The notes under the pieces are model-generated. The model searched no databases. It saw only the letters and a list, made by a program, of their open reading frames with translations, and had not been told where the DNA came from. A stretch of 64,000 nucleotides of DNA from Lingula anatina (taxonomy: Eukaryota > Animalia > Brachiopoda), in NCBI GenBank assembly GCA_051362555.1, contig CM120649.1, positions 3,038,001 through 3,102,000 of the forward strand, written 5' to 3'. Below, piece by piece: positions 4,824-62,454 of the stretch; position 1 is the stretch's first letter, and each line of letters starts with the position of its first letter. Position numbers and translations under genes: made by a program.

Positions 4824-22576
<17,753 letters not shown>

Positions 22577-27638: not shown

Positions 27639-29373
27639 TTATTAGTACCACCAGCGTATACGCTGGCGGTACTCATGGTTTTAGTCCCGGCCCGTCTCGT
27701 ACAGCTCCGCCGGCTCCGCCGGCTCCGCAGTCGGGCGCCGGAAACAAGTCACCGTTACCGCTTCTCCTCCTAGACCGCAAAGACCTGTCCCCATCTCTTG
27801 GATTTAGGTCACATATAATCTCAACTTGAACCCCCTGGTATTTTTGTCTCAGTTGGTGCATTGGTCTGGGTGTGATGTTCACTGAAATGCACCCTTGTCA
27901 AAATTTTTGAAAATTTGATGCTAAATATCTCCCAAACTGAAGGAATTATGGAAAAAGTTACTATAGAGGTCTGACCAAAAGTCATATATGGAGTTTCCAA
28001 ATATGCCCTTGGATTTGACATTTGACCTTTATTTCAAGGTCAAACAGGCCAAAATTTTCTAAAAATGGGAATTTTCTGCAAAAAAAGAATTGTTTGTGCC
28101 AATTTTCAGAAACTACATAGACCTAAGCTTTCATATTACAGTGAGGGCTACTATTTAGGGACTCCCTTCATCTTCGTGGGTTTGGGGTCAATCGGTGCAT
28201 TTTCACGGGAGAAGCAGTCATTTGATGCCAAAACTAAAAACTCTGTAATTGTGGAACTGTTTACACTAGAGACGTCTTGTTTTTTGCATGAAGTACAGCT
28301 TGTCAAGCACAATACTGGAGGTGGTGTCCATTTTCTTATTTTCCATACGGTTTAGGAGTTGCACATTATTAAATAGTACAACAATGCAATATTCAGTAGT
28401 TAACATAAAATGAAAAAATACTCCCAAAATTAGCAGAGATACACCCATAGCATTTGAATAGGAAGTCATTAACTAGCAATCTAACTGTGACCTTGATATT
28501 GACCTTTGACCTACTTTTCATGATGAACTTCACTTTGCAAGTTTTCTGGTCCTTATATCATCAAAACTAGCAGAGATACACCCATAGTTACCATTGAACT
28601 TGAATAGGAAGTGATATACTGACAATCTTAGAGCACATTCCCATAGATTAAGATCGATCTTACTTGATCGACCTAACTCCCTGCAGTTAGCCGACCACAC
28701 ACAGAATTTAATTATCCCCTTACAGCTTTTAGTAGGCAGGACAGGCACTTAAGCCAGCTAAGCTGACAGTAATCTAGTGAGACTCCCCATGGGGATAGAT
28801 CGATCTAAAATCTGTGGAAATGGGGTCTTACTGTAACTTTGAAATTAGCCTTTGACCTTCAAATTGATCTGTGACCTACTTTTCATAATGAACTGCACTA
28901 AAAAAAAATTCACTCCCTTATATCTCCAAAACTGGCAATAGTTGCTATTGATCTTGAATAGGAAGTCATATACTGGGAAACTTTTACTTTGAAATTGACC
29001 TTTGACCTATTTTTCACCATGAACTGTAGTTTGCAAATTTTCCCACCCTTATAAAATATGCTGACAGAGAAATGCCCATAGTTACTATTGAACTTTACCC
29101 AAATATAAACAAACTTTGAAATATTGTTTCCATTACAGTTAGAGAGGAAGTCCTACATTCACAATGATACTACATCCTTGTATTTGACCTTTAACTTTTT
29201 CCCACCTGATTTAAAAATATAATAATTATCTATAAAAAATGATAACCCTTGTTTACTGCATTTCATGCAGCTTGTCAACCCCTCCCCCTTCTTTTTCCTT
29301 CCCATTCGAATGTGCTTACTCCAGCTGGTGGTACAATACCAGGAGGCGGTATCGCCTCTCTGATCCTCTAGTT
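27639..29373. mobile_element. HINE family 2, copy 2 (opposite orientation to copy 1)
   Basis: Hairpin GTACCACCAGCG-TATA-CGCTGGCGGTAC, GCTCCGCCG repeats, core repeats and end CTCTGATCCTCTAGTT. Absent from the duplicated segment (~35450). Confidence 0.88.
28631..28827. mobile_element. PIF/Harbinger-type MITE nested in a HINE core repeat
   Basis: Inverted homolog of 16470-16669. It interrupts the core repeat at ATCTTA|CTGT with TTA duplicated. Confidence 0.75.
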
Positions 29374-30625: not shown

Positions 30626-32743
30626 CTACAGTGAACGGCGGTTTCGCTTAGTCTGATTCTTTGTTCCATACACTTGAAAGAAAACCGAACCAGTCGTTTC
30701 ATTTTGGTTAAATTGCCCGAATGTTTTAAAGGGAACGACCCCAAATGTTATCGCCGTTTCTCGTAATGCGCGTGATTTCCGTATCTCGTACCACATGGTG
30801 GCTCGAAAGCGCATGTATATTTCACGATTTGGATTCATTTCCGGTTTGTCCCAATTAAAGTTGTCCAGGCCTCTGTAGGTTTTCCTCGTACGGTCCACAG
30901 TCACTGTGTGAAAAAGTTCTGTTAAGCCCTCAGTTCGATGCCCGCCTCCTCCAGGTAAGACATCAGTTTCCACAAAAACTACTGGAATCCCCATGGCAAC
31001 GCATGGAAGCGCGCAATGGATACGCGAGGTTATAACTAATTTTGCGCGTGAGTATCTCTCTATCAAACTTTGTGCTTCTTCGTAGCGAGTTAATCTATCA
31101 AATTTCATCCAACTGGGTAGGTCATGTTTGACGTATATCGCCGATTTTCGTATGTGATACGGAACAATTAATTCTAAAGCGCGTTTGTTTACATTAACGA
31201 CAAATATGCCCTCTCTTTTAATGTTGGGATTGGGATTACGCATCAAAAGTGTCAAGCAGCCCGATTTAAATACTGAAAAGTTTTGGGATTTTAAGAAATT
31301 AAAAGTGACGTCATCACGAGCACCCACAGGGCCATGATGTCGAAGGTAATTTCTGCCCGGCTTAGTTAGTAGCTTCTTCCAGAAATTGGACCCAAAGTGC
31401 ATCGATATAATCAAAGGGTTTAGATTAACTTTTGGTGGCCATATCATGTTGCCGGCGTTATACCAACCATTTAGAAATATTGTGATTGGTTCTTTGAGTA
31501 TATTGGTTTGGTTGGAAACAATGAACCCTCTTCCATGCTGATCTTTCGTATCGCTTGTTTTAGATATATCATCACCGGCTGCATTTCGGTCCATGTACAA
31601 AGACCAATGTTTTTCCTTTTCATGGCTTTCTCTTTTACTGTTTGCTGCCCAAAAATTGTCAGTACCTTTCGACTGGACAGATGTTTTTACTACACTAGTG
31701 ACGTCCCAATTATCCCTGTCCACAAATAAATCAACAAAGGGAAGAAATTGTAGCCCTGCCAGAGTTTGAATCTCATCCCCAACGTTGCTGCCTCTTGTCA
31801 CATTCACCCGATGGTCAAAACTTAGGATTCCAAAGAGTTCATCTGGCCAAAAAGGTATTACAGAATCTCTACCGTTCTTTTCAATCTGTCTCTTATCTAC
31901 CTGGTTAAGAACTTTTGATTTCAGTAAGATTGAAGCTGTGTCCCAATTTTGGATTTGGCTTCTACTGCGACTGCTGTAGGCCGACTGAATCTCGATCATA
32001 GCATTTTGGACGAACAACGATTGTCGTTCGAACCTGGATACGAAAAAGATGCCTTTGGGGGACATCCATTCCCCCGTGAAATATTCATCTGGTAAATTTG
32101 ACGGGACTATTCTTCTTACATCTATGTAAAGTCCACCAAATGTCCACAGTGCAAGTAAAACACTTACTTCATGTACGACTGCCATAAATTTACGACCCAT
32201 GAGCAATTTCAGAATGGCGGATTTAGAGACAAAATCGTCCAGTGGTGTGCCCTGAGTCAACTCAGATAACAGTAAACGAAGTACTGTTACGTGTTTCCAT
32301 GACTTGGCGTCTATATGATCTATACATCCACTGCTTCCACACAGAAATACAACGCGTTTCCCTGGATTTAACCGGACGACGGTCTTTATTTTATCCATAA
32401 GCGTTTGTGGAATTGCGGCATAATGAGACCAGACCATGACAAAGTCTGAGGTCGCATTTTGATGTTGGCCCAAGTATTGTGGTGCTGCAGTTAACGCATC
32501 GCCTTTATAAGATGTGGGTACAGTAGATTTGGAGCCACCTGTCCGACCACTTGTAGATGGCCTGGCAAACGCCAAAAACTGTTTTAACTGGGTATGAGGG
32601 CCCTTCTGGTTCTCCCGGTAGATGATATCTCCGGATGTAGCAGACTGTTTTTTAGCCACCAAGTTGCCACTTGTGTTAACTTTCGTCACTGCTGACGGCA
32701 GGGCTGAGTTGGAATAAAAAGATATAATAATATAATAATAATG

Positions 32744-32812
<69 letters not shown>

Positions 32813-33202
32813 AGCACGCCAATACATGAACAATATTGGAACCTGAAAATGTACTTTTTATATATAAAAGCATCTTCTAATATGTTGAATAGCACATACC
32901 GACAATGGAATATTGGAGGCGAATCTACCAGAAACGTAACTAAAATTACAAATTAAATTCTGATTAAGAAGTCTATCTCAGTGGACTTGTTATTGGGTAT
33001 GCTGAACGTCCTGAATCTGATAGGCTTTCCTGTCCTTATATGTCTTCAATGGCGAATAATGTCCGCCCTTTAGCTTACTTTCAGTGCGGTTCATGAATTG
33101 GAAGGTGTAAATCAATGTCCCAATCACTAACAGCAGAACAGGCAGAAGGGATGTCTGCCAGCAACGAGGACATCTACGAAGACTCATCACTGTATATCTC
33201 AT
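30626..33202 (-). CDS. Truncated paralog (copy A): TM + degenerate GT32 + polysaccharide pyruvyltransferase-like domain, ~733 aa; possibly a pseudogene
   Basis: Exon 1 is 33079-33202 (MRYTVMS...LLPVLLLVIGTLIYTF, donor A|GTAAGC) and exon 2 is 30626-32703. Motifs NVGDEIQ, GARD, GCLTL and ITSRIHCALPCVAMGIPV are present. The stop TAG corresponds to GAG in copy B. Confidence 0.7.
32747..32807. repeat. (TA)n microsatellite in the copy A intron
   Basis: Long pure TA run, absent from the paralogous intron at ~39050. Confidence 0.95.
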
Positions 33203-36199: not shown

Positions 36200-39100
36200 T
36201 TAAACAAAATCCCCACAGAAAATGCAGAAATAGTTCAGAAGGTAACGGCAGAGCGTTCCAGGCTTTGTAGCGTCCCCATACGCTTTCGACAATCTGTTAT
36301 ATAGATGTACAGCAAATGACTCTTCGTTTACTGTGCCTTTATGAAGGAAACATTCTCGTGTAACGTTAGGCCACTCAAAAGGATAAAACGATTGCTGATA
36401 CAAACGTCTGACTATGCACGACTCGTCTTTGGATACATCTTCATATCTGCTGACGTCACACAGCCACGTGCGATGTTTTCTCGCCACGCGGGTGAGAAGA
36501 CTCGGTCCATTTGCCGCCCAATCGCTCTGATTATAGTGAACAAGGTAATTTTTAATACACTCACGGAGAAATGGATTGTGCTTATCGAATTTCAGAACAG
36601 CCCCATTTAAGAGGGAGTTTTCATTGTTTTCCCATGCAGTAACATTATTCAGAACTTTTAAACTCTTTACTAAAATGACGTCAGTGTCCATGTAAACGCC
36701 ACCGTACTGATATAACAAGAGCAATCGTATCAAGTCAGTTTGGTGGCTATACCAATATGGTCCTTCTGAAATAACGGGCAATCTCTTCAAGAACGCTCTC
36801 GAGCAACCTCTAAAGGTGTGTGGTTCCAGATTTTCAATGCGCTTTAATAAGTTTTCAAGAGTATAGTTTTCGACTTCTACTTGAAAACCTGCTTCATTGA
36901 ACTCAGAAAACGCGTTTTGTGTCAAAGCATTGCTCAGAATGCGCACTTTCGCATTTGGATGGTGGTAAAATATACTCTCCAGTGAACGGCGGTTCCGCTT
37001 TGTCTGATTCTTTGTTGCGTACACTTGAAAGAACACTGAATCAGTTGTTTCATTTTGATTAAATTGCCCGAATGTTTTAAAGGGTACGACCCCAAATGTA
37101 ATCGCTGTTTCTCGTAATGCGCGGGATTTTCGTATCTCGTACCACAAAGTGGCTCGAAACCGCATGTATATTTCACGATTTGGATTCATTTCCGGTTTGT
37201 CCCAATTAAAGTTGTCCAGGCCTCTGTAGGTTTTCATCGTACGGTCCACAGTCACTGTGTGAAAAAGTTCTGTTAAGCCCTCAGTTCGACGCCCTCCACC
37301 TCCAGGTAAGACATCAGTTACCATAAAAACTACTGGAATTCCCATGGCAACGCATGGTAGCGCGCAATGGATACGCGAGGTTATAACTAATTTTGCGCGT
37401 GAGTATCTCTCCATCAAGCTTTGTGCTTCTTCGTAGCGTGTTAATCTATCAAATGTCATCCAACTGGGCAGATCGTGTTTGACGTATATTGCCGATTTTC
37501 GTATGTGATACGGAACAATTAATTCTAAAGCGCGTTTGTTTACATTAACGACAAATATGCCCTCTCTTTTAATGGTGGGATTGGGATTACGCATCAAAAG
37601 TGTCAAGCAGCCCGATTTATATACTGAAAAGTTTTGGGATTTTAGGAAATTAAAAGTGCCTTCATCACGAGCACCCACAGGGCCATGATGTCGAAGGTAA
37701 TTTCTGCCCGGCTCAGTTAGTAGCTTCTTCCAAAATTTGGACCCAAAGTGCATCGATAAAATCAAAGGGTTTAGATTAACTTTTGGTGGCCATATCATGT
37801 TGCGGTCGTTATACCAACCATTAAGAAATATTGTGATTTCTTTTTTGAGATTATTGGTTTCGTTGGAAACAATGAATCCTTTTCTATGCTGATTTTTTGT
37901 ATCGCTTGTTTTTGACATGTCATCACCGGCTGCATTTGGGTTTATGTACAAAGACCAATTTTTTGCCTTTCCATGACTTTCTCTTTTACTGTTTTCTTCC
38001 CAAAAATTTTCAGTATTCTCCGACTGGACAAATGTATTTACTACACTGGTGACGTTCCAAGTATCTCTGTCCACAAATAGGTCTACAAAGGGAAGAAATT
38101 GTAGCCCTGCCAGCGTTTGAATCTCATCCCCAACGTTGCCGACTCTCACCACATTCACCCGATGGTCAAAACTAAGAATCCCAAAGAGTTCATCTGACGA
38201 AATAGGTATTACAGAATCTCTACCGCTCTTTTCAATCTGTCTCTTATCTACCTGGTTTAGAACTTTTGATTTTAGTAAGATTGAAGCAGTGTCCCAATTT
38301 TGGATTTGACTGCGACTGCTGTAGGCCGACTGAATCTCGATCATAGCATTTTGGACGAACAACGATTGTCGTTCAAACCTGGATACGAAAAAGATGCCTT
38401 TGGTAGACATCCATTCCCCAGTGAAATATTCATCTGGTAAATTTGACGGCACTATTCTTCTTACATCTATGTAAAGTCCACCAAATGTCCACAGTGCAAG
38501 TAAAACACTTACTTCATGTACGACTGCCATAAATTTACGACCCATGAGCAATTTCAGAATGGCGGATTTAGAGACAAAATCGTCCAGTGGTGTGCCTTGA
38601 GTCAACTCAGATAACAGTAAACGAAGTACTGTTACGTGTTTCCATGACTTGGCGTCTATTTGATCTATACATCCACTGCTTCCACACAGAAATACAACGC
38701 GTTTCCCTGGATTTAACCGGACGACGGTCTCTATTTTATCCATAAGCGTTTGTGGAATTGCGGCATAATGCGACCAGACCATGACAAAGTGTTGTGGTGC
38801 TGCAGTTAACGCGTCCTCTTTATAAGATGTGGGTACAGGAGATTTGGAGCCACCGGTCATACCAGAAGTAGATGGCATGGCAGTCGCCAAAAACTGCTTT
38901 AACTGGGTATGAAGGCCTTTCCTGTTCTCCCGGTAGATGGTTTCTCCGGACTGCATCTTAGCCACCAAATTGCCACTTGTGGTAACTTTCGTCACTGCTG
39001 ACGGCAGGGCTGAGTTGGAATAAAAAGATGTAATAATATAATAGTAATAAAATATAGGCCTATATGTAAAATGAGCACGTCAATACATGAACAATATTGG

Positions 39101-45684: not shown

Positions 45685-47987
45685 ATATAATATAATAATA
45701 ATATAATATATATGTATTTGAGAAAGTTGAAAATTAGTTTCTCACTTTTCCCTGACATATTGCCCAAAATTTCAGGGCAAAGATGACAACTTCCTGGGTC
45801 AAGGTCAACTGCTGCCAGACAATTTTGTCGCTGCCTGTGCTGAGGCTAAGGTTCCTGTGGTCCTCAGGATGCAAGAGGTATAGTTCTTTTTTATTTTTCA
45901 GAAATAAAAGTTGGATCAAAACTTCACTATAACTCAATGTTAATTTTACAGATATATTTTTATAAACCAGTTTCTAGGTTTCATTAGTACCACCAGCGTA
46001 TACGCTGGCGGTACTCATGGTTTTAGTCCCGGCCCGTCTCGTACAGCTCCGCCGGCTCCTGCGGCTCCGCCGGCTCCTGCGGCTCCGCCGGCTCCGCCGG
46101 CTCCGCAGTCGGGCGCCGGAAACAAGTCATCGTTACCGCTTCTCCTCCTAGACCGCCAGGACCTGTGTCCCCATCTCTTGGATTTAGGTCACATATAATC
46201 TCAACTTGAACACCCTGGTTTTTTTGTCTCTGTCGGTGTATTGGCCTGGGCGTGACACTTGTTGAAATGCACCCTTGTCAAAATTTTTGAAAATTCAAGG
46301 CTAAATATCTCCCAAACCAAAGGAATTATGGGAAAAATTACTACAGAAGTCTGACCGAAAGTCATATGTGGAGATTCCAAATATGCCCTTGAATTTGACT
46401 TTTGACCTTTTTTTCAAGGTCAATCAAGCCAAAATTTTCTAAAAATGGGAATTTTCTTCAAAAAAATATTTGTTTGTGCTATTTATTGGAAACTACACAG
46501 ATCTAAGCTCTCCTGTTATAGTGAGGGGTTACAATTGGGGACTCCTTTAATCTTTGGGAGTTTGGGGTCAATCGGTGCATTTTCACGGGAGAAGCAGCCA
46601 TTAGATACCGAAACTGAAAACTTGCTTTTATTCTGGAATGGTAAATGCCAGAGACCTTTTGTTCATAGCATTTTGTAGAACTTGTCAAGTGCATTACTGG
46701 ACGTGGTGTCCATTTTTTTGTTTTCGATATAGTTTAGGCATTGCGCTGTATCAAATATTACTACATTGCAATATTCAGTTGGGGAAATGTTAAATATTCC
46801 AAATTAGCAGAAATATGCCCAAAGTTACTATTGAACTTGAATAGGAATTCATATACTGGTAATCTAACTGTGACCTTGAAATTGACCTTTGACCTACTTT
46901 TCATGATGAACTGCACTTTGAAGTTTTCTGATCTTTATATCTCCAAAATTGGCAAAGATACGCCCAAAGTTACTGTTGAACTTTTATAGGAAGTTACATA
47001 CTGGTAATCTAACTGTGACCTTTAAATTGACCTTTGACCTACTTTTCACCATGAACTGAACTTTGCAAATTTTCCAGCCCTTATATCTCCAAAACTGGCA
47101 GAGATACACCCATAGTTACTATTGAACTATAATAGGAAGTCATATACAAGCATTCTTATTGTGACCTTTAAATTGACCTTTGGCCTACTTTTCACCAGGA
47201 ACTGAACTTTGCAAATTTTCTATCCTTTATATTTTGATAACTGGCAGAGATAGGTCCAAAGTTACTATTCAACTTGAATAGGAAGTCATATACTGGCAAT
47301 CTTACTGTGACCTTGAAATTGACCTTTGATATTTTCTTGCCCTTCATATCTTCAAAACTAGCAGAAATCTGCCCAGTGTTGTCCCTAGGTTTTCTCTTTT
47401 GTCAGCACCGGTATATGCAATACTGATAATGCATTTCGAGGAAAACCCATAGGCCTATTGTCTAGAAAATCACAGGAGTGATCAGTGTTATGAAAATACA
47501 GGTCAATTTGAACATCTCTTTGATTGGACCATTTTAACTGTTTTTTTTTTTTTTTTTTTTTTGCATATTTTGAGAATTCTTGTTAATTGCATTTTATAGA
47601 GCTTGTCAAGCACAAGACTGGTGGTGGTGTCCATACGAATGCGCTTACTCCAGCTGGTGGTACAATATCCAGAGGCGGTATCGCCTCTCTGATCCTCTAG
47701 TTTGTTTTTGTATATAAGATTGCTTTTGCAATTGATGAAATAAATTTATTATTGCCAAACTGAATCAGTTTACATTCATTACAGTTTTTAAGTGGAAGTT
47801 GCCAGTTGAAAACTATTGTTTTTATCCATTCAAATTTTGTAAGTTGTGATAGTGTGTGAGACATACATTACGATAGTTTTAATATAAATTTTTATTTCAA
47901 TTTTAGGGCTATGACCACAGCTATTTCTTCATCTCAACATTTATTGAGGATCACATAAAACACCATGCTAAATACTTGAATGCCTAA
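41554..47987 (+). CDS. ESD: S-formylglutathione hydrolase / esterase D, 282 aa
   Basis: Exons 41554-41621, 41771-41859, 42520-42618, 43156-43280, 44086-44147, 44661-44814 (GHS|MGG nucleophile motif), 45265-45333, 45776-45877 and 47907-47987 (GYDHSY). They sum to 849 nt. A probable 5'UTR exon ends at ~40786. Confidence 0.96.
41863..41977. repeat. (CT)n microsatellite; (AAT)n also at ~41426-41478
   Basis: Direct inspection. Confidence 0.9.
43872..44052. mobile_element. Palindromic MITE in an ESD intron
   Basis: Imperfect long inverted ends GTGAATTCAGA..GACTAACAGATCC / GGATCTGTTAGTC..TCTGAATGCAC. A related inverted copy lies at ~49062-49262. Confidence 0.6.
45981..47702. mobile_element. HINE family 2, copy 3, in the last ESD intron
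   Basis: Same terminal hairpin, GCTCCGCCG/GCTCCTGCG repeats, ~146-bp cores (~46800-47350) and CTCTGATCCTCTAGTT end as the other copies. Confidence 0.88.
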
Positions 47988-49690: not shown

Positions 49691-51424
49691 CGACTTCTTA
49701 GTTGTGGTAACCATAACCAACCATATGCTACATAATATCAAATGCAGATCTCTCACTTCAGTGCAATATGTAAAAAACGGCAAATCTAGCCTCAGAAAAT
49801 ACCTCAACATAACTAACACAATATCAAACAATTAGTAGCAAACAAAGACCATGGCTTAACTACATTGTGATGCAGCCCAGACAAAATAAAATTAACACAA
49901 ATGGTTGAGAAAAGAAAAAATTGCCATACTATGTCTAAATGTTACTTTAAACAAATGTCTTTATATTAACTTGGAATGTGACTTTGTTACTATGGTGATC
50001 TCACCAAAGCTTTGACCATGTTACTTATAAATGCTTTAGTTCACAGGAAAACTGATGGGTAACTGACACACCAAAATACAAGTTACATTAAATCTTCTTT
50101 AAAACAGAAATGAGATTATACTACACCTAAATTAGATTATCCCCCCCCCCCCAAAAAAAAATTATAATAAATGAAAAAGACACCTTAGTGCTGTGATCCC
50201 CAGGCAATTGCATCTACAGAGATAAAATGGTCTTCCCATTTTGTCAATAATATATAACAAAATATATTGTAAACTCTATTCTGTAGCTACAACAGACTCT
50301 TTGTGAACACCTGCAGAACTGTTTTATGACATGGTATGTAGTATTGTGTTGCCTTCAAGGTGGAAAATGGCAATATCACTGCTAAATATCTTAAAACTGT
50401 GGCTAGTTTCATTACATAACTTCAGCCTGGTAATTGTTCTTCACTTTTAGAACAAAAATTTGATCCAGACTTCAATTCAAGTTTTACTGGTTCATTAATA
50501 ATATATAAATTGCTGCTACAGCATTGCTTCTCTCAAAATATATTACAAAACATATTTGGTATGTTTGAAAAATAACAGTAACAAATGGATAATAAAATTC
50601 ATATGTTTGCGCATCTAGAATGATTTTTGTGCTAAAATTGACTTTCTTGGAATTGTGCAGAAAAAAAAATACCACAGCTGTATAAAACTTTATACAGTGT
50701 TAATTTGTGCTTGGTAACTGCAAAAAAAAAAAAAATAAAAAAAAAAAATAAAAAAAAAAAACCTGGCATCTGTCCAGGATCAATCCTTGTAAAATGCTGC
50801 TAATCGGATTATCAACGGAAACGTGGATTAATTAAAAAGTGACAACACTTTGGATGTGAAAATTAAGGCTCGAATTCTGATAATGACACACAAATTATCA
50901 CATCAAAATAACATAGTTACTGTGTAAAAATAAACATTTGTGCTTTGGTTTTAATTAACCCCACTCTTGATAATTTGGGGAGAATATAATTGTGCTTCAC
51001 ATTTATATAAGAATAGATGCTTATAAATAATGTAATATGTGAACCAAAAATTACCTTGTAAATTCATTTAGACATTAACACACCACACTTAAGTTTTAGA
51101 ATACCTGTGGTAAAATATTCACAACATTGTATCCTCCATACTTTTTCTATCATTATTTTTGTAGGATCATACCAATTGTTCAGAAAAGAGGTTCTGATAA
51201 ACAATTTTTTGCTTGTTTTCTCTTTTAGATTTTTACATAGTTTCACATGCTATGTGTACCTTACTAAAAGAGTATTTCACACGTTTATATTTTGCACTCA
51301 GTTCACTGATATATATGTAATACGTATAAATATAGAATTGCGACACTGACCTTAAGCTTTACAAGGACACCAATTGCGTAAATAATGACTCAGTCTAACA
51401 TAAATGTCAAATACTAAAAATACA

Positions 51425-51742
51425 TGTTACGGTTTGGCCCGTCTTAGCTGTTATGCACATCGGTGGAGATAGCGTTTTACTTTTTTGACTAGAGCACGCG
51501 CTTATCATAGTTATGTTCTGATCATTAAAAGTCACTAATTCCCGCAATGAGGTAAGACTTTATGAATCATTTAGTAATTTAAACAGTTAATAAGAACTTT
51601 ATAAGTTGTAATTGTAACATAATTTAAGGATAATTTCTTAATTTGATGTATTTTGTTCATTTCAGTTTCTACGTGACAATTTCAATGACAAGCAAATAAA
51701 ATAGATGTAAAAAAGACTAAAGAAGTTTGCTTATTCGTAACA
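51425..51742 (+). repeat. 5' LTR
   Basis: TG...CA termini, internal GT-AG intron candidate 51552-51665, AATAAA at 51695-51700. Confidence 0.97.
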
Positions 51743-51828
51743 GTAGAAACTCAGCGACGATTTAGTGAAAGATAGTAGAAACTGAGCGACGATTTAGTGA
51801 AAGACGATCAGCATAGTATTTAGAAAAG

Positions 51829-54800
51829 ATGGCAACACAAGCAGAAATGATACTGCTGCAAGCAGAACTGAAAAGGGTAGAGTCGCATATAGATCAAACC
51901 ATGTGTGAGTTGGAAAAGCATTTTAATTTCACAAAGTCAAATATAAAAAAGACATCTACGCCCAAAAATGCACTAACATCTTGTGCCCCACTCACTTTGT
52001 GTGAGCAAACTACGATAGCAAAGGAACTCAGTAAACCAAGAATTCAGATTCAAGTATTTGAAGGTGACCCGATCAAATATGTGCTGTTTAAGAGACAGTT
52101 CAAAAGTAGAATCATAGAAACATGCGACTCTGACGATGAAAAACTGAACTATCTACTGCAATACACCAGAGGTGAGCCTCATGAAATTACGCTAGGTTTC
52201 GCTCACTTAGATGCAACCATTGGTTTCAAGGCCGCATGGAAGGAATTTGAGAGAAGGTATGGGGACCAAGAACAGATTGCGACATCGTATATAAACCGTG
52301 CCTTACAGTGGCCAGTGATAAAGCATGATGATTATGTCGCATTAGACAAATACGGCATATTTTTAAGGGAATGTGAATATGCAGTAAAAGAAATAGATGC
52401 CATTCCAGTCCTCGAGTATCCCGATAACCTTAAGAGGCTAATGACGAAGCTGCCGCTCAAATTGCATGATAAATGGAGAAGCATAGTATATGAAAGGAAG
52501 GAAAGGGGACAGAAGATAACCTTTCAGGTTTTCGTCGATTTTGTGCAGAAAGAAGCACGAAAATTGGCTGACCCCATTTTTGGAAAGGTTCCACCGCCAC
52601 CAGAGAGACCTATACCAGCACCAAGGAGAAGAGTTCCAACACAAACAGTACTGTCTAGTACCTCTGCATCCAGCAACGAAAGACACGTTCACAAGTGTAT
52701 ATTATGCAAGGAACAACATAAACTTCACCAATGCCCAGAAATGCAAGAAAAGACAATGGATGAAAGACTCAGCATTATAAAGAATAATGGTTTATGTTTT
52801 GGGTGCCTTGCATATGGTCACAGAAAACATGAATGCAGAAGTAAAATGAAATGCCAAAAATGTAACTCTTATCATCCAACAATTCTACACGATGACAATT
52901 ACACTAGTAAAGTAGTGGGAGCAGCTGTATGCCATACCACCCACAGTTCTGAGAATGTGCATTCCATGATAGTGCCAGTTGTAGTGCACCACGAGGATAA
53001 TCCAGACATTTATTCAGTGGTATATGCAGTACTAGACGAGCAGTCAGATGCCTGCTTTGTAAAGTCCTCGACCCTCAGTGAACTCGAATGTAAAGGGAAG
53101 CATGTAGACATCAGACTTTCAACCATACTTGGAGAAAAAACCGTCCCGAGCAGGAAAGTTAGAGGACTTGTTGTGAGAGGTCTGAACCAAGAGACATTGA
53201 TTGAGCTCCCAGATACATACTCCAGAGACTCCATTCCAGTTAAGCGATCACAGATACCCAGACCAGAAACTGCTAAGAAATGGCCACACTTGCACTCAAT
53301 TGCTGATAAGATTACTCCTTATCGCCCAGACATAGAGGTAGGACTGCTGTTGGGAGTAAACTGTATGAAAGCCATTAGAGGTCTGGAGTACATACATGGT
53401 AGAGGAGAGGAGCCATATGCATACAGATGTAACCTAGGTTGGGGTATAGTAGGGCCAGTGGACAAATCAAGACCCATAGATGAGAACAAGAGCTTTGGAA
53501 CACATGCCTTTGCCTTTAGAACACAAGTGACAGAGATCAGCCCCGCTGAGGTTTGCAGTCTCTTTGACCAAGGTTTCGACCAACAGAAAGATGAGAAGTT
53601 AAGCCTTCAAGACCAGAAGTTCATGAAGATTATGGAGGAGGGCATACATTTCAACGAGGGTTTTTACGAGATGCCACTACCATTTAAAGATGGACATCCA
53701 GCATTGCCAAACAACAAACCAGCAGCTGAGATCAGGCTAGAGCAGCTAAGGAAAAGGCTAATCCACAACCCGAAGTATTATGAGCACTATAACAGTTTTA
53801 TGCAGGACCTCATAGATAAATGCTATGCAGAAGAATCACCTCATGAAGATGGAGGTTGGTACTTACCACATCATGGTGTATATCACCCCAAGAAACGTGA
53901 GAAATTACGAGTGGTGTTTGATGCCAGTGCAAAACATGAAAATGTTGCGCTAAACGACTGCCTGTTGAAAAGACCTGATCAGAATAACTCGCTCATAGGT
54001 GTTTTATTGAGGTTTAGAGAGCAGCCAGTAGCAATCATGGGTGACATGGAGAACATGTTTCACAGGTTTAAAGTGAAAGAAGAGGATAGAAAGTTTTTAC
54101 AGTTCCTATGGTGGAAAGACGGTGACCTCAGTAGTAATCCCATCACATACAGAATGACGTCTCATATATTTGGAGCGATAAGTTCACCAGCATGCGCATT
54201 GTATGGACTGAGGAAACTAGCAGAGGACTACCAAGATGAGTATTCACCAGACGTCATTGCCTTTCTTAAGAATGACTTTTATGTAGACGATGGACTCAAG
54301 AGCATTGAGTCAAGTGAAGAAGCTATACGTCTTGTTAGAGAAACAAGAGAGCTGCTGAACAAAGGTAACCTAAGACTTCACAAGCTAGTATCAAACAACC
54401 GTGAAGTGATGAATACAATCCCAATGTCAGAGAGAGCCAAAGAAATGAGAAACATTGACCTTAACAGAGACACATTGCCAATATGCCCAGCTTTAGGAGT
54501 ACAGTGGTGTGTAGAAGCGGACAGTTTTCAGTTTAAGGTCCAGATCAATGATAAGCCATTAACAAGAAGGGGAATTCTCTCCACTGTAAGTTCCATATTT
54601 GACCCTTTAGGCCTTGTCTCACCATTCATCCTTGCCGGTAAGAAAATTCTCCAAGAGCTATGCAGAGACGGTGCAGAGTGGGATGATCAAGTGCCAGAGA
54701 GTATTAGATGCAGATGGGAAAGATGGCGCTCAGATTTGCTGAACTTAACCAAGTTGAATATACCACGGTGCTATAAGCCAAATGATTTTGGTGAAGTGAC

Positions 54801-55809
54801 TACTGCAGAACTTCATCACTTCTCAGATGCCAGTGTAGAAGGCCTAGGTCAGTGTAGTTACTTGAGACTTAAAAGCAACACAGGAAGAATAGCAACCACA
54901 TTAGTTATGGGCAAGTCCAAGGTAGCTCCCTCTAAACCAGTGACAGTCCCACGCCTAGAGTTGTCAGCAGCAGTGATGTCTATAAAGGTGGGGACCTTTC
55001 TTGCCAAGGAGTTAGAGTATGAGGACATCACCCATGTGTATTGGACTGACAGCAAAGTTGTTCTAGGGTATGTCAATAATGATGCTAAGAGATTTCATGT
55101 CTTTGTAGCAAATAGAATACAACAAATTAGAGAAGTCAGTCAGCCATCCCAATGGAGGCATGTTAAGTCCAGTGACAACCCAGCTGATATAGTCTCCAGG
55201 GGAACAGGTGTGACAGAGCTACTACAGAATGAACAGTGGTGGAGTGGGCCAGACTTTCTGCGCATTGATGAACCACTATCTACCACTGATACCCAATTCA
55301 GACTAGCACCAGATGACCCAGAAGTACGCAAATCTGAAGTCAATGTATTTGCTACTAAAGTAGAAACCAACCACGATCACTTGTCTGATGTATTGAAAAG
55401 GTTTTCTTCCTGGAACAGAGCAACACGAGTTGTTACGTGGTGTTTACGATTCATACAGAAGCTGAAACAAGCTAAGAACAGGAAATCTACACAGCAGAAC
55501 ACAGTTGAGACCAGCAATGAACCGTTGAATGTTCAAGAAATACAAGTGGCAGAAAAGATCATTCTCAAGTCAACACAGATTGCTACATTTGAGAAGGAAA
55601 TTGCAATACTGAAAGCAATTAACAGAGAAGATAACAGTGAACACACAGAGAGAAAACAGGCAAGATATCGCAACGAACAAATCAAGAAAACCAGTTCACT
55701 ATACCGCCTAGACCCATTTTTATGTGAAGATGGACTACTCAGAGTAGGTGGTCGTATAAAGAGGGCAAATCTACCCAGAGAGCTTACACACCCAGTGTAT
55801 TCTGCCTAA
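51829..55809 (+). CDS. BEL/Pao gag-pol polyprotein, part 1 (Gag with three Cys/His knuckles, aspartic protease, RT, RNase H)
   Basis: FEGDP, CILC..H..C / CFGC..H..C / CQKC..H, AVLDEQSD, FYVDD, HHFSDAS, WTDS, DNPAD. Ends at a frameshift near 55797. Confidence 0.95.
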   Translation: MATQAEMILLQAELKRVESHIDQTMCELEKHFNFTKSNIKKTSTPKNALTSCAPLTLCEQTTIAKELSKPRIQIQVFEGDPIKYVLFKRQFKSRIIETCDSDDEKLNYLLQYTRGEPHEITLGFAHLDATIGFKAAWKEFERRYGDQEQIATSYINRALQWPVIKHDDYVALDKYGIFLRECEYAVKEIDAIPVLEYPDNLKRLMTKLPLKLHDKWRSIVYERKERGQKITFQVFVDFVQKEARKLADPIFGKVPPPPERPIPAPRRRVPTQTVLSSTSASSNERHVHKCILCKEQHKLHQCPEMQEKTMDERLSIIKNNGLCFGCLAYGHRKHECRSKMKCQKCNSYHPTILHDDNYTSKVVGAAVCHTTHSSENVHSMIVPVVVHHEDNPDIYSVVYAVLDEQSDACFVKSSTLSELECKGKHVDIRLSTILGEKTVPSRKVRGLVVRGLNQETLIELPDTYSRDSIPVKRSQIPRPETAKKWPHLHSIADKITPYRPDIEVGLLLGVNCMKAIRGLEYIHGRGEEPYAYRCNLGWGIVGPVDKSRPIDENKSFGTHAFAFRTQVTEISPAEVCSLFDQGFDQQKDEKLSLQDQKFMKIMEEGIHFNEGFYEMPLPFKDGHPALPNNKPAAEIRLEQLRKRLIHNPKYYEHYNSFMQDLIDKCYAEESPHEDGGWYLPHHGVYHPKKREKLRVVFDASAKHENVALNDCLLKRPDQNNSLIGVLLRFREQPVAIMGDMENMFHRFKVKEEDRKFLQFLWWKDGDLSSNPITYRMTSHIFGAISSPACALYGLRKLAEDYQDEYSPDVIAFLKNDFYVDDGLKSIESSEEAIRLVRETRELLNKGNLRLHKLVSNNREVMNTIPMSERAKEMRNIDLNRDTLPICPALGVQWCVEADSFQFKVQINDKPLTRRGILSTVSSIFDPLGLVSPFILAGKKILQELCRDGAEWDDQVPESIRCRWERWRSDLLNLTKLNIPRCYKPNDFGEVTTAELHHFSDASVEGLGQCSYLRLKSNTGRIATTLVMGKSKVAPSKPVTVPRLELSAAVMSIKVGTFLAKELEYEDITHVYWTDSKVVLGYVNNDAKRFHVFVANRIQQIREVSQPSQWRHVKSSDNPADIVSRGTGVTELLQNEQWWSGPDFLRIDEPLSTTDTQFRLAPDDPEVRKSEVNVFATKVETNHDHLSDVLKRFSSWNRATRVVTWCLRFIQKLKQAKNRKSTQQNTVETSNEPLNVQEIQVAEKIILKSTQIATFEKEIAILKAINREDNSEHTERKQARYRNEQIKKTSSLYRLDPFLCEDGLLRVGGRIKRANLPRELTHPVYSA

Positions 55810-56977
55810 GCATCATCACGTTACAAATCTCATAATTGACCACTATCATACACGATGCGGACATTCAGGAAGTGGCATTACTCTTAATGAAGTCCGAGCT
55901 AGTGGTTATTGGATAATTTCTGGCCGTGCCAAGATTGGATCATATATATGGAAATGTGTGACCTGTCGTAAGCTACGAGCAAACTCACAGAGTCAGAAAA
56001 TGTCAGATCTTCCAGCTGACAGACTGGAACCAGCACCTCCATTCACCTACAGTGCAGTAGATTTCTTTGGACCATTCTATGTGAAGGAGGGAAGAAAGCA
56101 GATGAAGAGATATGGTGCTATGTTTACATGTTTAGCATCACGTGCTATTCATATAGAAGTTGCATATTCACTCAGCACAGATTCTTTCATTAACTGCTAC
56201 AGACGCTTTGTATGCAGGCGTGGACCAGTACGTCTACTCAGAGCAGACCGTGGAACCAATTTCATTGGAGTTAAGGGAGAGCAAGAAACTGCCTTTATGG
56301 ATATGGATCAGGACAAGATCAGGAGAGAACTTCTGAAAGACCACTGTGACTGGATTCAGTTTGAAATGAATGTTCCTCATGCTTCACATATGGGAGGCGT
56401 GTGGGAAAGGATGATCAGATCAGCCAGAAATGCTTTATCGGGACTTCTCACAGCTCACAGTGACCGTTTAGATGATGATTCCTTGTCCACATTGTTAACT
56501 GAGGCAGAAGCCATAGTTAACAGTAGACCTTTGACTTACATTGATACACAGTCACCAGATTCTCCAATGCCTTTGTCTCCAAATCAGCTCCTGACCCTGA
56601 AAACTAAGGTCGTGATGCCACCACCTGGGAATTTCATAAGGAAAGACACATACCTTCATCGAAGATGGCGACATGTTCAATATCTAGCCAATGAATTTTG
56701 GAACAGGTGGAGAAAGGAATTTCTTCCTACATTACAAGAGAGAAAAAAGTGGATCAAACAATGTAGAGATGTACAAGTTGGAGATATTGTTCTCATGATA
56801 GATGACAGTGCACCAAGAAATCAGTGGCCACTTGGTCGCATAACAGAAACCTTTCAAAGTGCAGATGGATATGTGCGTAAGGTCAAGTTGAAAGTTAGGG
56901 ACTCTACATATGAGAGACCAGTGCACAAGTTAATTCTTTTATTGACCGGAGAAGACCCCGTCGAGGAGCCAAAATAA
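55798..56977 (+). CDS. BEL/Pao integrase (frameshifted continuation of pol)
   Basis: ILPK...DHYH...GH...C..C zinc finger, then VDFFGP, RADRGTNF, GGVWERMI and the C-terminal WPLGRI/RPVHKL motifs. Confidence 0.93.
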
Positions 56978-57267
56978 CTGTTAACTGTGACAATAGTGTT
57001 AGTTTGTTATGATTCTATGCTACAGTTTGTGTAGATTTAATGAACACTTTTGTTTTCTAAAGACAGTTAAATGTTGGGCTATTTGTGTTTATGGGATTGC
57101 AAGGTATTTTATGTTTAAATACAGTAATTAACAGTAAGTTTTGATGTTCCTTAAAGGTGTTTAAGGTACGGTAATTCTTAATAATTTCCGAGCAAATATT
57201 TTTTATACGTAATGATAAGGTAAACAGTGTATATTGTATAAATTGCTTTCACAATTTAGGGGAGCCA

Positions 57268-57585
57268 TGTTACGGTTTGGCCCGTCTTAGCTGTTATGCA
57301 CATCGGTGGAGATAGCGTTTTACTTTTTTGACTAGAGCACGCGCTTATCATAGTTATGTTCTGATCATTAAAAGTCACTAATTCCCGCAATGAGGTAAGA
57401 CTTTATGAATCATTTAGTAATTTAAACAGTTAATAAGAACTTTATAAGTTGTAATTGTAACATAATTTAAGGATAATTTTTTAATTTGATGTATTTTGTT
57501 CATTTCAGTTTCTACGTGACAATTTCAATGACAAGCAAATAAAATAGATGTAAAAAAGACTAAAGAAGTTTGCTTATTCGTAACA
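57268..57585 (+). repeat. 3' LTR
   Basis: Near-identical to 51425-51742. Confidence 0.97.
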
Positions 57586-58955
57586 ATACATTACACATGT
57601 AGATGAAATAAAACAGAATTAAAATATATAAATTTAACAATGACAAGAGAGGCTTTTGACTGGAGAAAGAGTAATAACAGAAATAATAAAATAAATTCAC
57701 AACTATTCATATTAAGTCGAGTTATTATCATTGTCAGATCTCAACCAATATCACCTTAATGCACCAAATTTCAGATCCATTGTATAACTGCAGGCTTGAT
57801 CTTTTAACATCTCCTTTTCCATACAGGCAAGCTTATTACCCAACAAGTGAAAGTGAAGAATCTGCATTGCCAATGTAGGATCTAAAACTGGGGCAAATTT
57901 AAGTGCTCACATAATTTTAGAAAACACATAAAACTGATGGGTAACTCATTTACAAAACTGAAGATTAATCACAGGAATAAGACTGCCATTTAGTGAAAAA
58001 TCAAAAAAATATAGCTTTGGGTTCAGGGGGCTGCCTAGGCCAATATTTTTGGCTCATAAAACGTAGCAAATCTGTCAATAGTTGGAAAAATCTCACCCCT
58101 ATAATTAGACACCCTGTTAAGACACGGTGATAGCAAGTGCATTTATATCCGGGGTTTAATGAAAGAAGTTTATGTATGCCATCAGTGCTATGCAACTACA
58201 GTCACCTCACACCTGTTAATTAGACTGTCTGATGCCTCAAGTGATAAACACTTGTTTGTAGGTGACAAAAACAATAAAAGAAGTTTCTTCATATCCAAAA
58301 AACAACAGCATCTTGTACTTAAAAAAAAAAAAAAGATATACCAAGTAGCCATCTTGGTACCTGTTCACACACGTTACCAACTTAAACTGGAATGTGACAA
58401 AGCCATGTCACTTTATATACTAGCTACAGTACCAGAAAACCTGTCGATGTCATGGCTGAAACTTTAAAATGGCACATAAGTTATCTTAACTTGATCTTGT
58501 CAACAGGCTAGTCAGAGGCTAGTTAATGGATTTTCAAAAATTTTTTTATTATCAGCATACTGAGGACAGAGGACAGTTAGAAAAAAAAAAAAAAAACTCA
58601 AAAAGTCAGGGTGTAACAGAGGTGTTAGCTTCCAGATCAAAACTCTCTGAAACTCACAGAGAAACAGCTGTAAGCTTCCAGAAACTCTCTGGTGTTCTCC
58701 GATTCCATTCCAAGATATTTTGTATCCTAGCTCTACCCAATTAAACATTTTGCCAAATGTTCGACTTAATTAAATTGTCTAAAGAAAAATATATATATTT
58801 ACAAGCATACATGTAACTAATACAGCAATGTTTCTATTCAAAAAAAAAAAAAAAAAAAAATACAGCTATTTTAAAAAGAAGGTTCTATATCAAATGGGAG
58901 CATTTTTCTTAATTTGAAAATTATCATAAATGCTCTGGCACTATCAAATGGATCT

Positions 58956-59675
58956 CTATATGTTTCCATTGCCACTACCATCTCCATTCATTAGTGCTTG
59001 AACTGCTGGGTTACCTTCGGCGCGGGCTCTGAAAGAGGCGTCAAGTAACTCATTGCCATCATTAAACAAGGGATTCTGGGTAACAGGGAGACTAATGGTG
59101 GAAACGCCATTATTCGTGGCCATGTCCCCATCATAACTAACCCCAGAATCCACGCTGATTCTCGACTCGGCTCTTTTCTCCCCTTTTGAGATGGACTTCT
59201 TGGTTTTTGCCTCATCTTGGGAGAGAGAGCGTTGCCGTTGCACTTTGGCTGAGTTTGTCTTCCATTCCTTAAAAGCTACCTGAAATGCTCGCGATAAAAC
59301 TAACGCCACAGCCTGCGCCTTTTCCTTGCTGCTGCATATCGCTGCGTGACAATACAACTTCTGCTTTTCTGGCAATTTATACACCCAGCAGACGATTCTA
59401 TCATTGATGGCCCTGTCTGGTGCGCAGTAGGATAACTGTTCAATTCCAAACATAAACTCCTGTTTGGTCTCTGGATTGACCATGAGCATGCCCGTTTTGT
59501 TTATTCTCAGAGCAACGCGGCTCATGTTGCGCTCTTCTGTTGAGGAGTCCCATATCTTCTGCAACGGTGCATCCGTGCAGCCTTTCCCACTTGGCACGAA
59601 GGTTTCCGTGTTGCCAATGTAGCGCACAAAGAAAACAGGATCTTCCTCAGTGATGGGGACTTTTTTCTTGAACAT
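58956..59675 (-). CDS. FAM43A-like phosphotyrosine-interaction (PTB/PID) domain protein, 239 aa
   Basis: ITEEDPVFFVRYIG...GKGCTD...KIW, LSYCAPD and LYCHAAICSSKEKAQAVALVLSRAFQVAFKEW match the FAM43/PID_2 pattern. The CDS is in a single exon with a splice acceptor at ~59707. Confidence 0.8.
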   Translation of the reverse strand: MFKKKVPITEEDPVFFVRYIGNTETFVPSGKGCTDAPLQKIWDSSTEERNMSRVALRINKTGMLMVNPETKQEFMFGIEQLSYCAPDRAINDRIVCWVYKLPEKQKLYCHAAICSSKEKAQAVALVLSRAFQVAFKEWKTNSAKVQRQRSLSQDEAKTKKSISKGEKRAESRISVDSGVSYDGDMATNNGVSTISLPVTQNPLFNDGNELLDASFRARAEGNPAVQALMNGDGSGNGNI

Positions 59676-62454
59676 TCCTCTTCAGTGGCACAAAAGACTT
59701 AAATGCCTGCTGAAAATGAAAAATGAAAAAAAAAAAAAATTATGTAATATGACAAAGTTTAATTTTTTAAAACCAAAACAGTAACATGTAGGCAATACAT
59801 CAGGCATATTTACAAAACCTTTTTTGAAAACTATACATGTACATGTATAAAAAGCATTATCCATTTATATAATACAAAGTTGTTTATTGTAATCCATTTC
59901 TATTTTAGTATAATAATTTAGGTAGAAGTTAAACATTAATTAGGAGGTTTAGCAGGGGGCTGCCTAAGCCAGTGATATTCTTGGCTCCCTGAACAGTAGG
60001 AAATCTGCCGATAGTGGGAAAACCACGTCCCTGAACTAGTTGTGGCAGTGACAGGTGCCATTCTAAGTAAAATGGAGACATCTAACTCATTTCACAGTTA
60101 TAAACTTACAAATGCAATTATGATACAGGTTTGACCTACCGTGCTCAAGTAATTCTTTATATTTTATATGCAGGCAAGTTACCATACATGCACCTTCAAC
60201 TCCATTTGGCCCTGAAAGATAGAATATAAATTAATAAACAGCCAGAGACCTCATGTGATTGTGACGATATATCCTTTTTTCCCCCATTCTAATGGTGTTT
60301 TGAGGTGAAATGCAAGTACTTTCTATCAGAACAAATAAATAATACAATGCAATTAACCCACTTCAGGGGCTGATTGAGGCCATCATCTGGGTCCTCCTGA
60401 CGACAGTCAGATTTTCAAGTTAACATTGATGGGTATCTATTTTTTTCTGTCAGAAGACGATCAAAAATGGAGGATGCATCAACAAAGATAATTTGGAAGA
60501 CTGTCAGAAAATAACTCTGGATCCACCCCTGCTCTTGGAATATATTCCGTGAACATACACCTCTTGCTGGCGCTTAAGGTGTTCCTGCATATATATCACC
60601 TGGGGATTGCCTATTATCTTACACATATACCAAACAAGTTAACAATATAAATTCATATCACTCTAACTGTTGCCTGCAGCTCTATCAGCAGCATCATTCT
60701 GTACAAACCACACTACTGGCTGCATAAATATTCTATAAAGCATGGGGCAATGCTGGTGTGTCATACATTGCCAATAGCTATAAAAACAATACACTTTAAT
60801 GACATATACATGTAGATTTCACATTTCAGTTCTTTAGGAGTTTGTCCTCAATTTTAAAACATGATCGATGCAGTTGCCACTAAAATTATGAATCCAAAGA
60901 TAAAACCTTCTAGCATTCAAGGTAGAAATAGAGAAAAATAATTTATTTCACAGTTACGAACTCATGGCTGAAATTAATAAACCATTGTTTGTGAATGTGG
61001 CCTGATAAACCTACTGTATCATGCTGAAAAGAAATTAGTCTATAAAAACGGTTTTAAAACATGATAATTTTTGTTCTGTTATAAAGGAGACAAACTGACC
61101 AGTAACACTTGAAAAAAAATTAAAGACGCCGTTAAAAGAATAATAAAATTGTTAAAATAAATAAATTCCTATGTAAAGTTAAACCTGTCCATATATATTA
61201 TAACCTAAAACAATCCTTCAATAAATAAATAAATAAAAACAGTAAAATTATAATGTTACTTTAAATAAAGTCTCATGCCAGTTTATGAAGATAATCATCT
61301 TCTCAAATTCACTAAGTTAACAATATTTGACCAATTTACTGAACATAAATAGCCACTCCATTGTGTGTCCATAAAGTACTTCTACCTGCTGATTAAATGG
61401 CCACACTGTTGGGCTGGTCCATAGAAACAGTTCTTACATCAGTAGCCAGTGAATACTAGTAAATCTTACCTTAATAGCTACAATCAATGAGCATAAAATT
61501 AGTCATAAAATCAGCAGTAACCTGTTTATAATTACCTCCCAGACTGACCAATCACTCGTACTACTGAAACTACCACTTCGCATGGATAGACATAATGTCA
61601 TGTACTAGTACTGTACGTGTCAGCATTTTACCCATCAGCCTCAGCCTTAGGCGTAACATAACAGGAGTGGCCAAACCAGAAAAACGGTGTATACTAGTAC
61701 CTTAACAAACCACCTTCACGGCCATTATACCCATGACGTTGATGAATTGAGAACTGTCTTTGATGTATCGCCAGCTTTTGTTAATCTGATACTAACAATG
61801 GATACAGAGACGTGATGAATCACTTTGGCTTGAAATAAGACCTCTTGTGTCAATATCACCTTGTATGTTTATGTATTATACAGTATATCATATTAATGCT
61901 ACTGGTATATAGTAACGGATGGATCACTGCTTCTCTTTTTATATTTCTGGTTTGAATTTTTTCTCTGGTAAACTGCAGGTGATATTGCAAATCTACATTT
62001 GTCACTTCATATTTAAATCATATAATTTTTTGAAGCAGCAGATAAATATGAAATCACTGTCACCTGAATAACATATGCCTCTAAGATGACAGTGAAAACC
62101 TCCTCATTTCTCAAAATAAATAATAAAATATTATAAATAAACATACGATGAAATCTCTTTTCACCTGAATTGACTTTAGAACCACGTTTCCACTTTCAAT
62201 TATCTCACCACAACCTATCTCTTTGTTATACTGGTTGTATTATATAATGAACAAAATTAAACATAGATGACCTGTGAGGTTTCTATTTCTACAAGGGAAA
62301 GTACATGAACATGTTTGACGTGTACATGTTGGAGTGATAACAAATACTAACAGCAGCCTCCTCATATAAATTTGCCTGTTATCATGAACTTTTTTTTTTT
62401 TTTTTAGGTCAGTCTACTGAACACCTATGATGGATTTTAGTCTTTCTATTATTC

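Follow-up and report, generated by a model that had tools for sequence, protein, structure and literature searches.

We found that a BEL/Pao retrotransposon of the brachiopod Lingula anatina carries, directly behind its 5′ long terminal repeat (LTR), a site that is exactly complementary to the splice junction of an intron located within the same LTR. The splice sites of this intron work in RNA, and the pairing between junction and site is kept across families of related elements. It is probable that the element primes its reverse transcription in cis, in a Tf1-like manner, using as primer the 5′ end of its own RNA after splicing, and highly probable that a splice-assembled self-primer is used when action in cis and in trans are taken together. 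Self-priming of this BEL lineage via the LTR splice junction had been suggested by a first-pass annotation of the sequence, and it is supported here by splicing in RNA and by the pairing kept in relatives.

The element and its post-LTR site

The window, that is, the whole 64,000-nt stretch of L. anatina DNA that was analysed, contains one such LTR retrotransposon, located at 51425-57585 on the plus strand and flanked by a 5-bp target-site duplication (51420-51424 and 57586-57590). Its LTRs (51425-51742 and 57268-57585) are 318 bp long, the 5′ copy having TG..CA ends with an inverted repeat, and they differ at a single position, 51637, which falls within the intron. Because the LTRs show one difference over 318 bp and the target-site duplication is present, the insertion is young. 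A gag-pol ORF (51829-55809, plus strand) encodes DUF1759, a CCHC knuckle, a protease-like motif, reverse transcriptase (RT, with YVDD), and RNase H motifs, while an integrase with a zinc finger, D,D-E motifs, and DUF5641 lies in another frame (55760-56977, plus strand); the frame change between RNase H and integrase interrupts pol, either in this copy or in the assembly. Pfam matched DUF1759, Peptidase_A17 (E 1.5e-44, in gag-pol), and DUF5641 (E 1.1e-30). The order of the motifs is PR-RT-RH-IN, as in BEL/Pao, and judged by these proteins, the element is a member of BEL/Pao. A Pfam domain search of the element gave no match to a chromodomain, and the element is not a member of the Tf1/sushi group. 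The closest protein to the gag query was from L. anatina (86% over 59% of the query). A polypurine tract (57258-57267) precedes the 3′ LTR, and an AATAAA at 51695-51700, taken to signal polyadenylation, would function in the 3′ LTR copy.

The 88 bases following the 5′ LTR lack TGG. They contain two tandem units of 32 nt (51743-51774 and 51775-51806), which differ at positions 10, 31, and 32. The LTR itself holds an intron of 114 nt with GT..AG ends (51552-51665; 57395-57508 in the 3′ LTR). The first 11 nt of unit 1 (51743-51753, GTAGAAACTCA), beginning with the first base after the LTR, are the exact complement of 51548-51551 joined to 51666-51672, and represent the predicted primer-binding site; 51666-51672, the start of exon 2, would form the 3′ part of the primer. 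In the exon 1 end (51532-51551), the bases upstream of the exactly paired 51548-51551 are predicted to continue the pairing as a bulged helix. The corresponding bases of unit 2 (51775-51785) are the exact complement of the unspliced acceptor, 51662-51672. Since exon 1 and the intron both end with AG, 9 of these 11 unit 1 bases are still paired by unspliced RNA. Thus, the first-pass description of a BEL element with no TGG-type tRNA site, a consensus LTR intron, two tandem units distinguished by one base within their first 11 nt, and an 11-nt match of each unit to either the spliced junction or the unspliced acceptor was borne out, including the coordinates and the bulged pairing reaching back to 51532. 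ARAGORN found 0 genes in the window, and the 4 Rfam matches in the window were all below gathering scores, with none being tRNA-like.

We assessed how often such a match would arise by chance if every GT..AG pair of the LTR was admitted as an intron, giving 845 possible 11-mers, and if the site could lie at 6 offsets. A junction match was obtained for 1127 of 200000 random sites and for 3 of 5400 internal positions, which puts the estimated probability of a chance match in the window at about 0.6% at most. The 11-nt match involves the very intron that is spliced in RNA reads.

Several other features of the window were observed. Two long tandem ORFs on the minus strand (30626-32857 and 36200-39079) carry a polysaccharide pyruvyl transferase domain, with glycosyltransferase domains additionally present in the latter. 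This pyruvyl transferase domain is mainly bacterial, and thus, gene transfer is possible. Tandem arrays of 146 bp at 13329-14680, 28407-29068, and 46790-47364, found in both orientations, probably represent one dispersed repeat family. Last, an ORF with a PTB/PID domain is located on the minus strand at 58956-59681, 1.4 kb from the 3′ LTR.

Splicing of the LTR intron in RNA

Four RNA runs (X11, X14, X17, and X19), of each of which 6-30% was read, were placed on 51325-52524. We found that 12 of the 43 reads placed from X14, with 11 different starts, skip 114 bases bounded by GT..AG, which correspond precisely to 51552-51665; the 51551-51666 junction, which the first-pass annotation had proposed to look for in RNA-seq, is thus present. 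The first mate of the spliced reads maps to the minus strand, which in most stranded libraries indicates sense RNA. The remaining runs (13, 25, and 21 reads placed for X11, X17, and X19, respectively) showed no joint, with X17 and X19 covering the flank only. The alignments of the spliced reads break off with loose ends at 51495 and 51743, and the reads thus derive from another LTR copy inside a longer transcript. These reads demonstrate that the splice sites are functional, and the genomic RNA is presumably spliced in the same manner. No reads from the four runs cover 51765-52284, and thus, none joins the spliced LTR to the site.

The RNA runs displayed no pile-up of read ends that would mark a transcript start, the spliced reads do not begin near 51532, and no cut was seen in the RNA reads. 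Only 5 of 24 cases, the window not among them, had an initiator-like motif ahead of the donor, leaving the start site unsupported. A cryptic splice acceptor is located at 51480-51495 in U3, where X14 reads have loose ends; for this reason, an LTR copy elsewhere seems to feed exons to a host transcript.

Pairing and folding in related elements

Relatives were collected by RT alignment, with the best 80 of 541 confirmed metagenome matches and eight loci from genome bins giving 88 loci; scans of viral contigs yielded none. The eight BEL/Pao loci from bacterial genome bins (L081-L088) are most likely misbinned host DNA. A permissive scan accepting any GT..AG and any CA/TA was dropped as too noisy, with matches of 11-13 nt often arising by chance. 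We used a stricter scan, blind to LTR ends, in which donors and acceptors had to fit the consensus and the junction had to be matched by an exact complement of at least 10 nt located 20-400 nt downstream; some loci had been inspected by eye before the thresholds were chosen. Matches were detected in 19 of 69 upstream regions, including that of the window, as compared to 4 of 69 regions on the reverse strand and 17 of 154 coding controls. Of 24 scan matches, 19, one per positive region, lie 0-4 nt past an LTR-end-like tetramer, against a background of 11%.

The LTR end could be fixed in 11 relatives with two LTR copies, although for L023 and L070, it was manually shifted by a few bases to the closest TA or CA. 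Eight of these 11 pair exactly across a junction over 10-15 nt. As for the rest, L082 has one mismatch, L058 matches contiguously, and L070 shows no match. When sites and LTRs were swapped among the relatives, pairing of at least 10 nt was found in only 1 of 132 combinations. None of the 11 carries TGG in the first 8 nt after the LTR.

Altogether, 30 of the 88 loci have a donor, an acceptor, and pairing in one LTR copy, with 10-15 exact pairs and mostly 11. They comprise 18 loci from the upstream scan, 5 found via the 3′ LTR, 5 from a looser search, and two further loci (L014 and L079); five pairs are near-copies, leaving about 25 families with 19 different sites besides that of the window. 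Among 29 curated rows (window included), spliced pairing spans 10 nt in 4, 11 in 18, 12 in 4, 14 in 2, and 15 in 1, while unspliced pairing is limited to 4-9 nt and is exceeded by spliced pairing in 29 of 29; because these rows were chosen for pairing, their significance rests on the blind scan and on the relatives with both LTRs. The gain from splicing is often larger in relatives, rising from 4 to 11 nt in L040 and from 5 to 11 nt in L005. Pairing of at least 10 nt between the site of one curated row and the junction of another occurs only between families sharing at least the first 10 site bases.

The first-pass annotation had proposed covariation in related elements as a check. We found that complementarity is kept with different letters, each site matching its own junction: in the 20 different site sequences, positions 3-11 vary and position 2 is constant, and the end of exon 1 and the start of exon 2 both change along with the site across families. 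The LTR introns of the relatives measure 71-625 nt, the donor of L054 being uncertain. A blastn search with the window LTR found no match among the relatives, and their RTs are at most 59% identical to that of the window; thus, the pairing is kept while the sequence is not. The layout is present in both purine-tract classes and across a quick tree of fetched loci (72 of 89 rows plus one outgroup, with 5 of the 29 curated loci absent). A label test on this tree was uninformative, as untestable rows were scored as negatives.

The other 58 loci were surveyed by eye, most of them lacking an LTR end or not closely examined. Both halves of the match are present in separate pieces in L019, L042, and L084, and the exon-2 half alone in L011, L030, L037, and L046. 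Four loci fail or are doubtful (L008, L056, L070, and L082); L008 matches only via a weak donor 1038 nt away, and L056 is mismatched. The site is matched contiguously in L028, L050, and L058. In L028 (1-183 and 6924-7206), the LTR has the joined, intron-less form with an 11-nt match to the site; its RT is nearly identical to that of the intron-bearing L012 and L021, and an origin from spliced RNA or from intron-less DNA are both conceivable. L058 (566-911) and L050 (1-290) are sisters (quick-tree support of 86) with a contiguous 11-nt match and no intron, and might represent an intron-less, Tf1-like lineage. The early-branching L068, whose LTR end is not fixed, has TGG right after CA upstream of gag (about 355-372) and is possibly a tRNA-primed relative.

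Leader folding was predicted assuming an exon 1 of 30 nt. In the spliced leader of the window, unit 1 is paired with a predicted probability of 1.00, with the helix reaching 51532 and including a stem between U5 and exon 2. In the unspliced RNA, pairing of the first bases of unit 1 with exon 2 drops to 0.01, and unit 2 is paired at 0.98 (37 C). Among 21 leaders, helix probability was at least 0.5 in 13 spliced versus 4 unspliced forms; folding failed in 8 of the 21 spliced leaders, L060 being reversed and L005, L018, L020, and L081 low both ways. Beyond the exact match, the helix outperformed all 46 swaps in 6 of 24 cases, including the window, and was equaled by at most two swaps in 10 of 24. 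These predictions suggest that the extended helix is common, not general. By eye, A-U, C-G, and U-G pairs were noted at one helix position in L005, L081, L018, and L019.

For this copy, folding predicts what the earlier idea of a primer site switched by splicing between the two units would require, but this part of the claim stops here: no relative was seen to share a distinct pair of spliced and unspliced units, and a two-site switch beyond this copy is unsupported. A second tandem duplicate site was spotted by eye in L042 (about 127-170), the units of which share their first 10 bases. Speculatively, unit 2 may be left over from an unspliced primer.

Priming model, alternatives, and known systems

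In the model that we favor, transcription would start within the LTR about 20-30 nt before the donor, as the reach of the bulged helix suggests. The host spliceosome would excise 51552-51665 from the genomic RNA as it does from an LTR copy elsewhere, and the joined leader, as predicted by folding, would lie back on unit 1. By analogy with Tf1, the RNase H of the element would cut after 51672, leaving a 3′-OH opposite 51743, from which RT would copy 51742 back to 51673 before jumping to the 3′ end. Because this strong-stop DNA would span only 51673-51742, the 3′ LTR would be the source of the inherited intron and must often leave it unspliced, consistent with the occurrence of the intron in both LTRs. 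Splicing of the 3′ LTR intron would give rise to intron-less relatives, and L028, L050, and L058 fit such occasional loss. Copy-back of the primer into DNA has been reported for Tf1; here, it would make the site track the junction as the latter changes and could thus yield covariation in the absence of selection, on condition that the spliced RNA serves as the primer. Self-priming of Tf1 in cis with its own RNase H is said to have been described by Levin in 1996.

The same pairing could be read in other ways. The junction might be the primer but act in trans, supplied by a co-packaged second RNA or a short spliced transcript ending at the poly(A) site of the 5′ LTR, or a host nuclease might cut instead of the RNase H of the element. 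The pairing evidence fits action in trans equally well, and a short LTR-only spliced RNA is possible, as A[AT]TAAA is found shortly past the acceptor in 22 of 24 cases. We nonetheless consider this unlikely, because pairing within one molecule is predicted at 1.00 for the window and because Tf1, according to the available part of the report, primes in cis with its own RNase H (10.1101/2022.12.06.519325). It is likewise improbable that the helix serves in regulation or packaging, for instance by controlling gag translation, with a host RNA such as a tRNA half priming at or near the site. A regulatory role would suit the gag start located 86 nt past the LTR, but no more than 0-4 nt separate the end of the helix from that of the LTR, the point at which minus-strand synthesis must begin, and the exact length of 11 nt in 18 of 29 rows argues against this reading. 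Half-tRNA priming does exist in Ty1/copia lineages, as described in the accessible text of PMC6317226; here, 20 different sites each match their own junction, and thus, no one tRNA can serve them all, in addition to which TGG is absent and Rfam gave no tRNA-like match.

Least probable, to a degree that we regard it as largely refuted by the sequence comparisons, is that the primer is the free first exon released by the first splicing step or the unspliced acceptor, with the junction match being incidental or due to chance. Exon 1 alone does pair with the far part of unit 1, and unspliced RNA forms 9 pairs with unit 1 and 11 with unit 2. Yet the exon 1 end and the exon 2 start co-vary with the site across families, unspliced pairing reaches just 4-9 nt in 29 of 29 rows, and a primer consisting of exon 1 or acting at unit 2 would presumably initiate synthesis 7 or 32 nt from the LTR end, respectively. 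The low chance estimate for the window and the single success among 132 swaps further argue against a coincidence.

Splice-assembled self-priming thus remains the preferred reading. We also think it fairly likely that a large BEL/Pao branch exchanged tRNA priming for a two-exon primer built by the spliceosome, so that reverse transcription is gated by splicing and the intron, which distinguishes the 5′ from the 3′ copy of the primer, survives via the unspliced 3′ LTR. If this is true, self-priming extends to a third LTR superfamily, a reverse transcription primer can exist only after splicing, an intron can persist in an element replicating through RNA, and the replication of the element is tied to host splicing. 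The model specifies precise RNA ends (51672/51673) and a precise junction between primer and DNA. It would also account for the failure of annotation tools to locate a primer site in these elements, given that searches for tRNA sites and for contiguous self-primers both miss it.

The first-pass annotation knew of no such description for BEL/Pao, and our literature search likewise turned up neither BEL/Pao self-priming nor a splicing-built primer; an earlier description is possible in subscription journals, Repbase, Dfam, GyDB, or supplements, which lay outside its scope. BEL/Pao self-priming is not described in the available parts of PMC3601003, PMC12451622, PMC8220671, PMC6934838, PMC13524379, and PMC5443660, and neither PBS nor tRNA came up in a term search of the accessible text of PMC554778, PMC3118150, and PMC6238403. 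The ICTV description of Belpaoviridae lists LTRs of 0.2-1.2 kb, a gag-pol order of PR-RT-RH-IN, a polypurine tract, and an 18-nt site complementary to the 3′ terminus of either tRNA-Arg or tRNA-Gly (PMC8742986). The window element shares the LTR size range, the PR-RT-RH-IN order, and the polypurine tract; it departs from the description in that it lacks TGG and has a site pairing with its own splice junction.

Self-primers have been predicted for the plant TAR elements of Ty1/copia (Houba and Osr-1) and for Tcn1 where, in the part of the source available, an LTR segment is complementary to at least 10 bases starting 0-5 nt after the 5′ LTR (PMC6317226). These matches are contiguous in DNA, whereas that of the window element exists only after splicing; as unspliced pairing spans 4-9 nt, this blastn-based rule would miss the spliced cases.

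The closest likeness is to the Tf1/sushi group of Ty3/gypsy chromoviruses (Tf1, Tf2, and Tj1), which, like the window element, has no tRNA site and a post-LTR site pairing with its own leader. The Tf1 self-primer is 11 nt long, matching the exact pairing in the window. According to the available parts of PMC4600332 and 10.1101/2022.12.06.519325, the Tf1/sushi site is complementary to a 5′ stretch of the RNA of the element itself, and the latter describes a three-duplex “pretzel” in Tf1. The central duplex and a stem of U5 with the sequence after the primer are likewise predicted in the window element; the third duplex was not seen, and in its place, the sequence after the site folds onto exon 1. 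In about half of Tf1 cDNA, the 3′ end retains the site in full, according to the accessible portion of PMC11042837. In contrast to Tf1, the window element has BEL/Pao proteins with no chromodomain found, its primer is predicted to extend past 11 nt as a longer, bulged helix, and this primer is split by a spliceosomal intron and never occurs as one piece in the DNA. Thus, the element may work like Tf1 while not being a member of the Tf1/sushi group.
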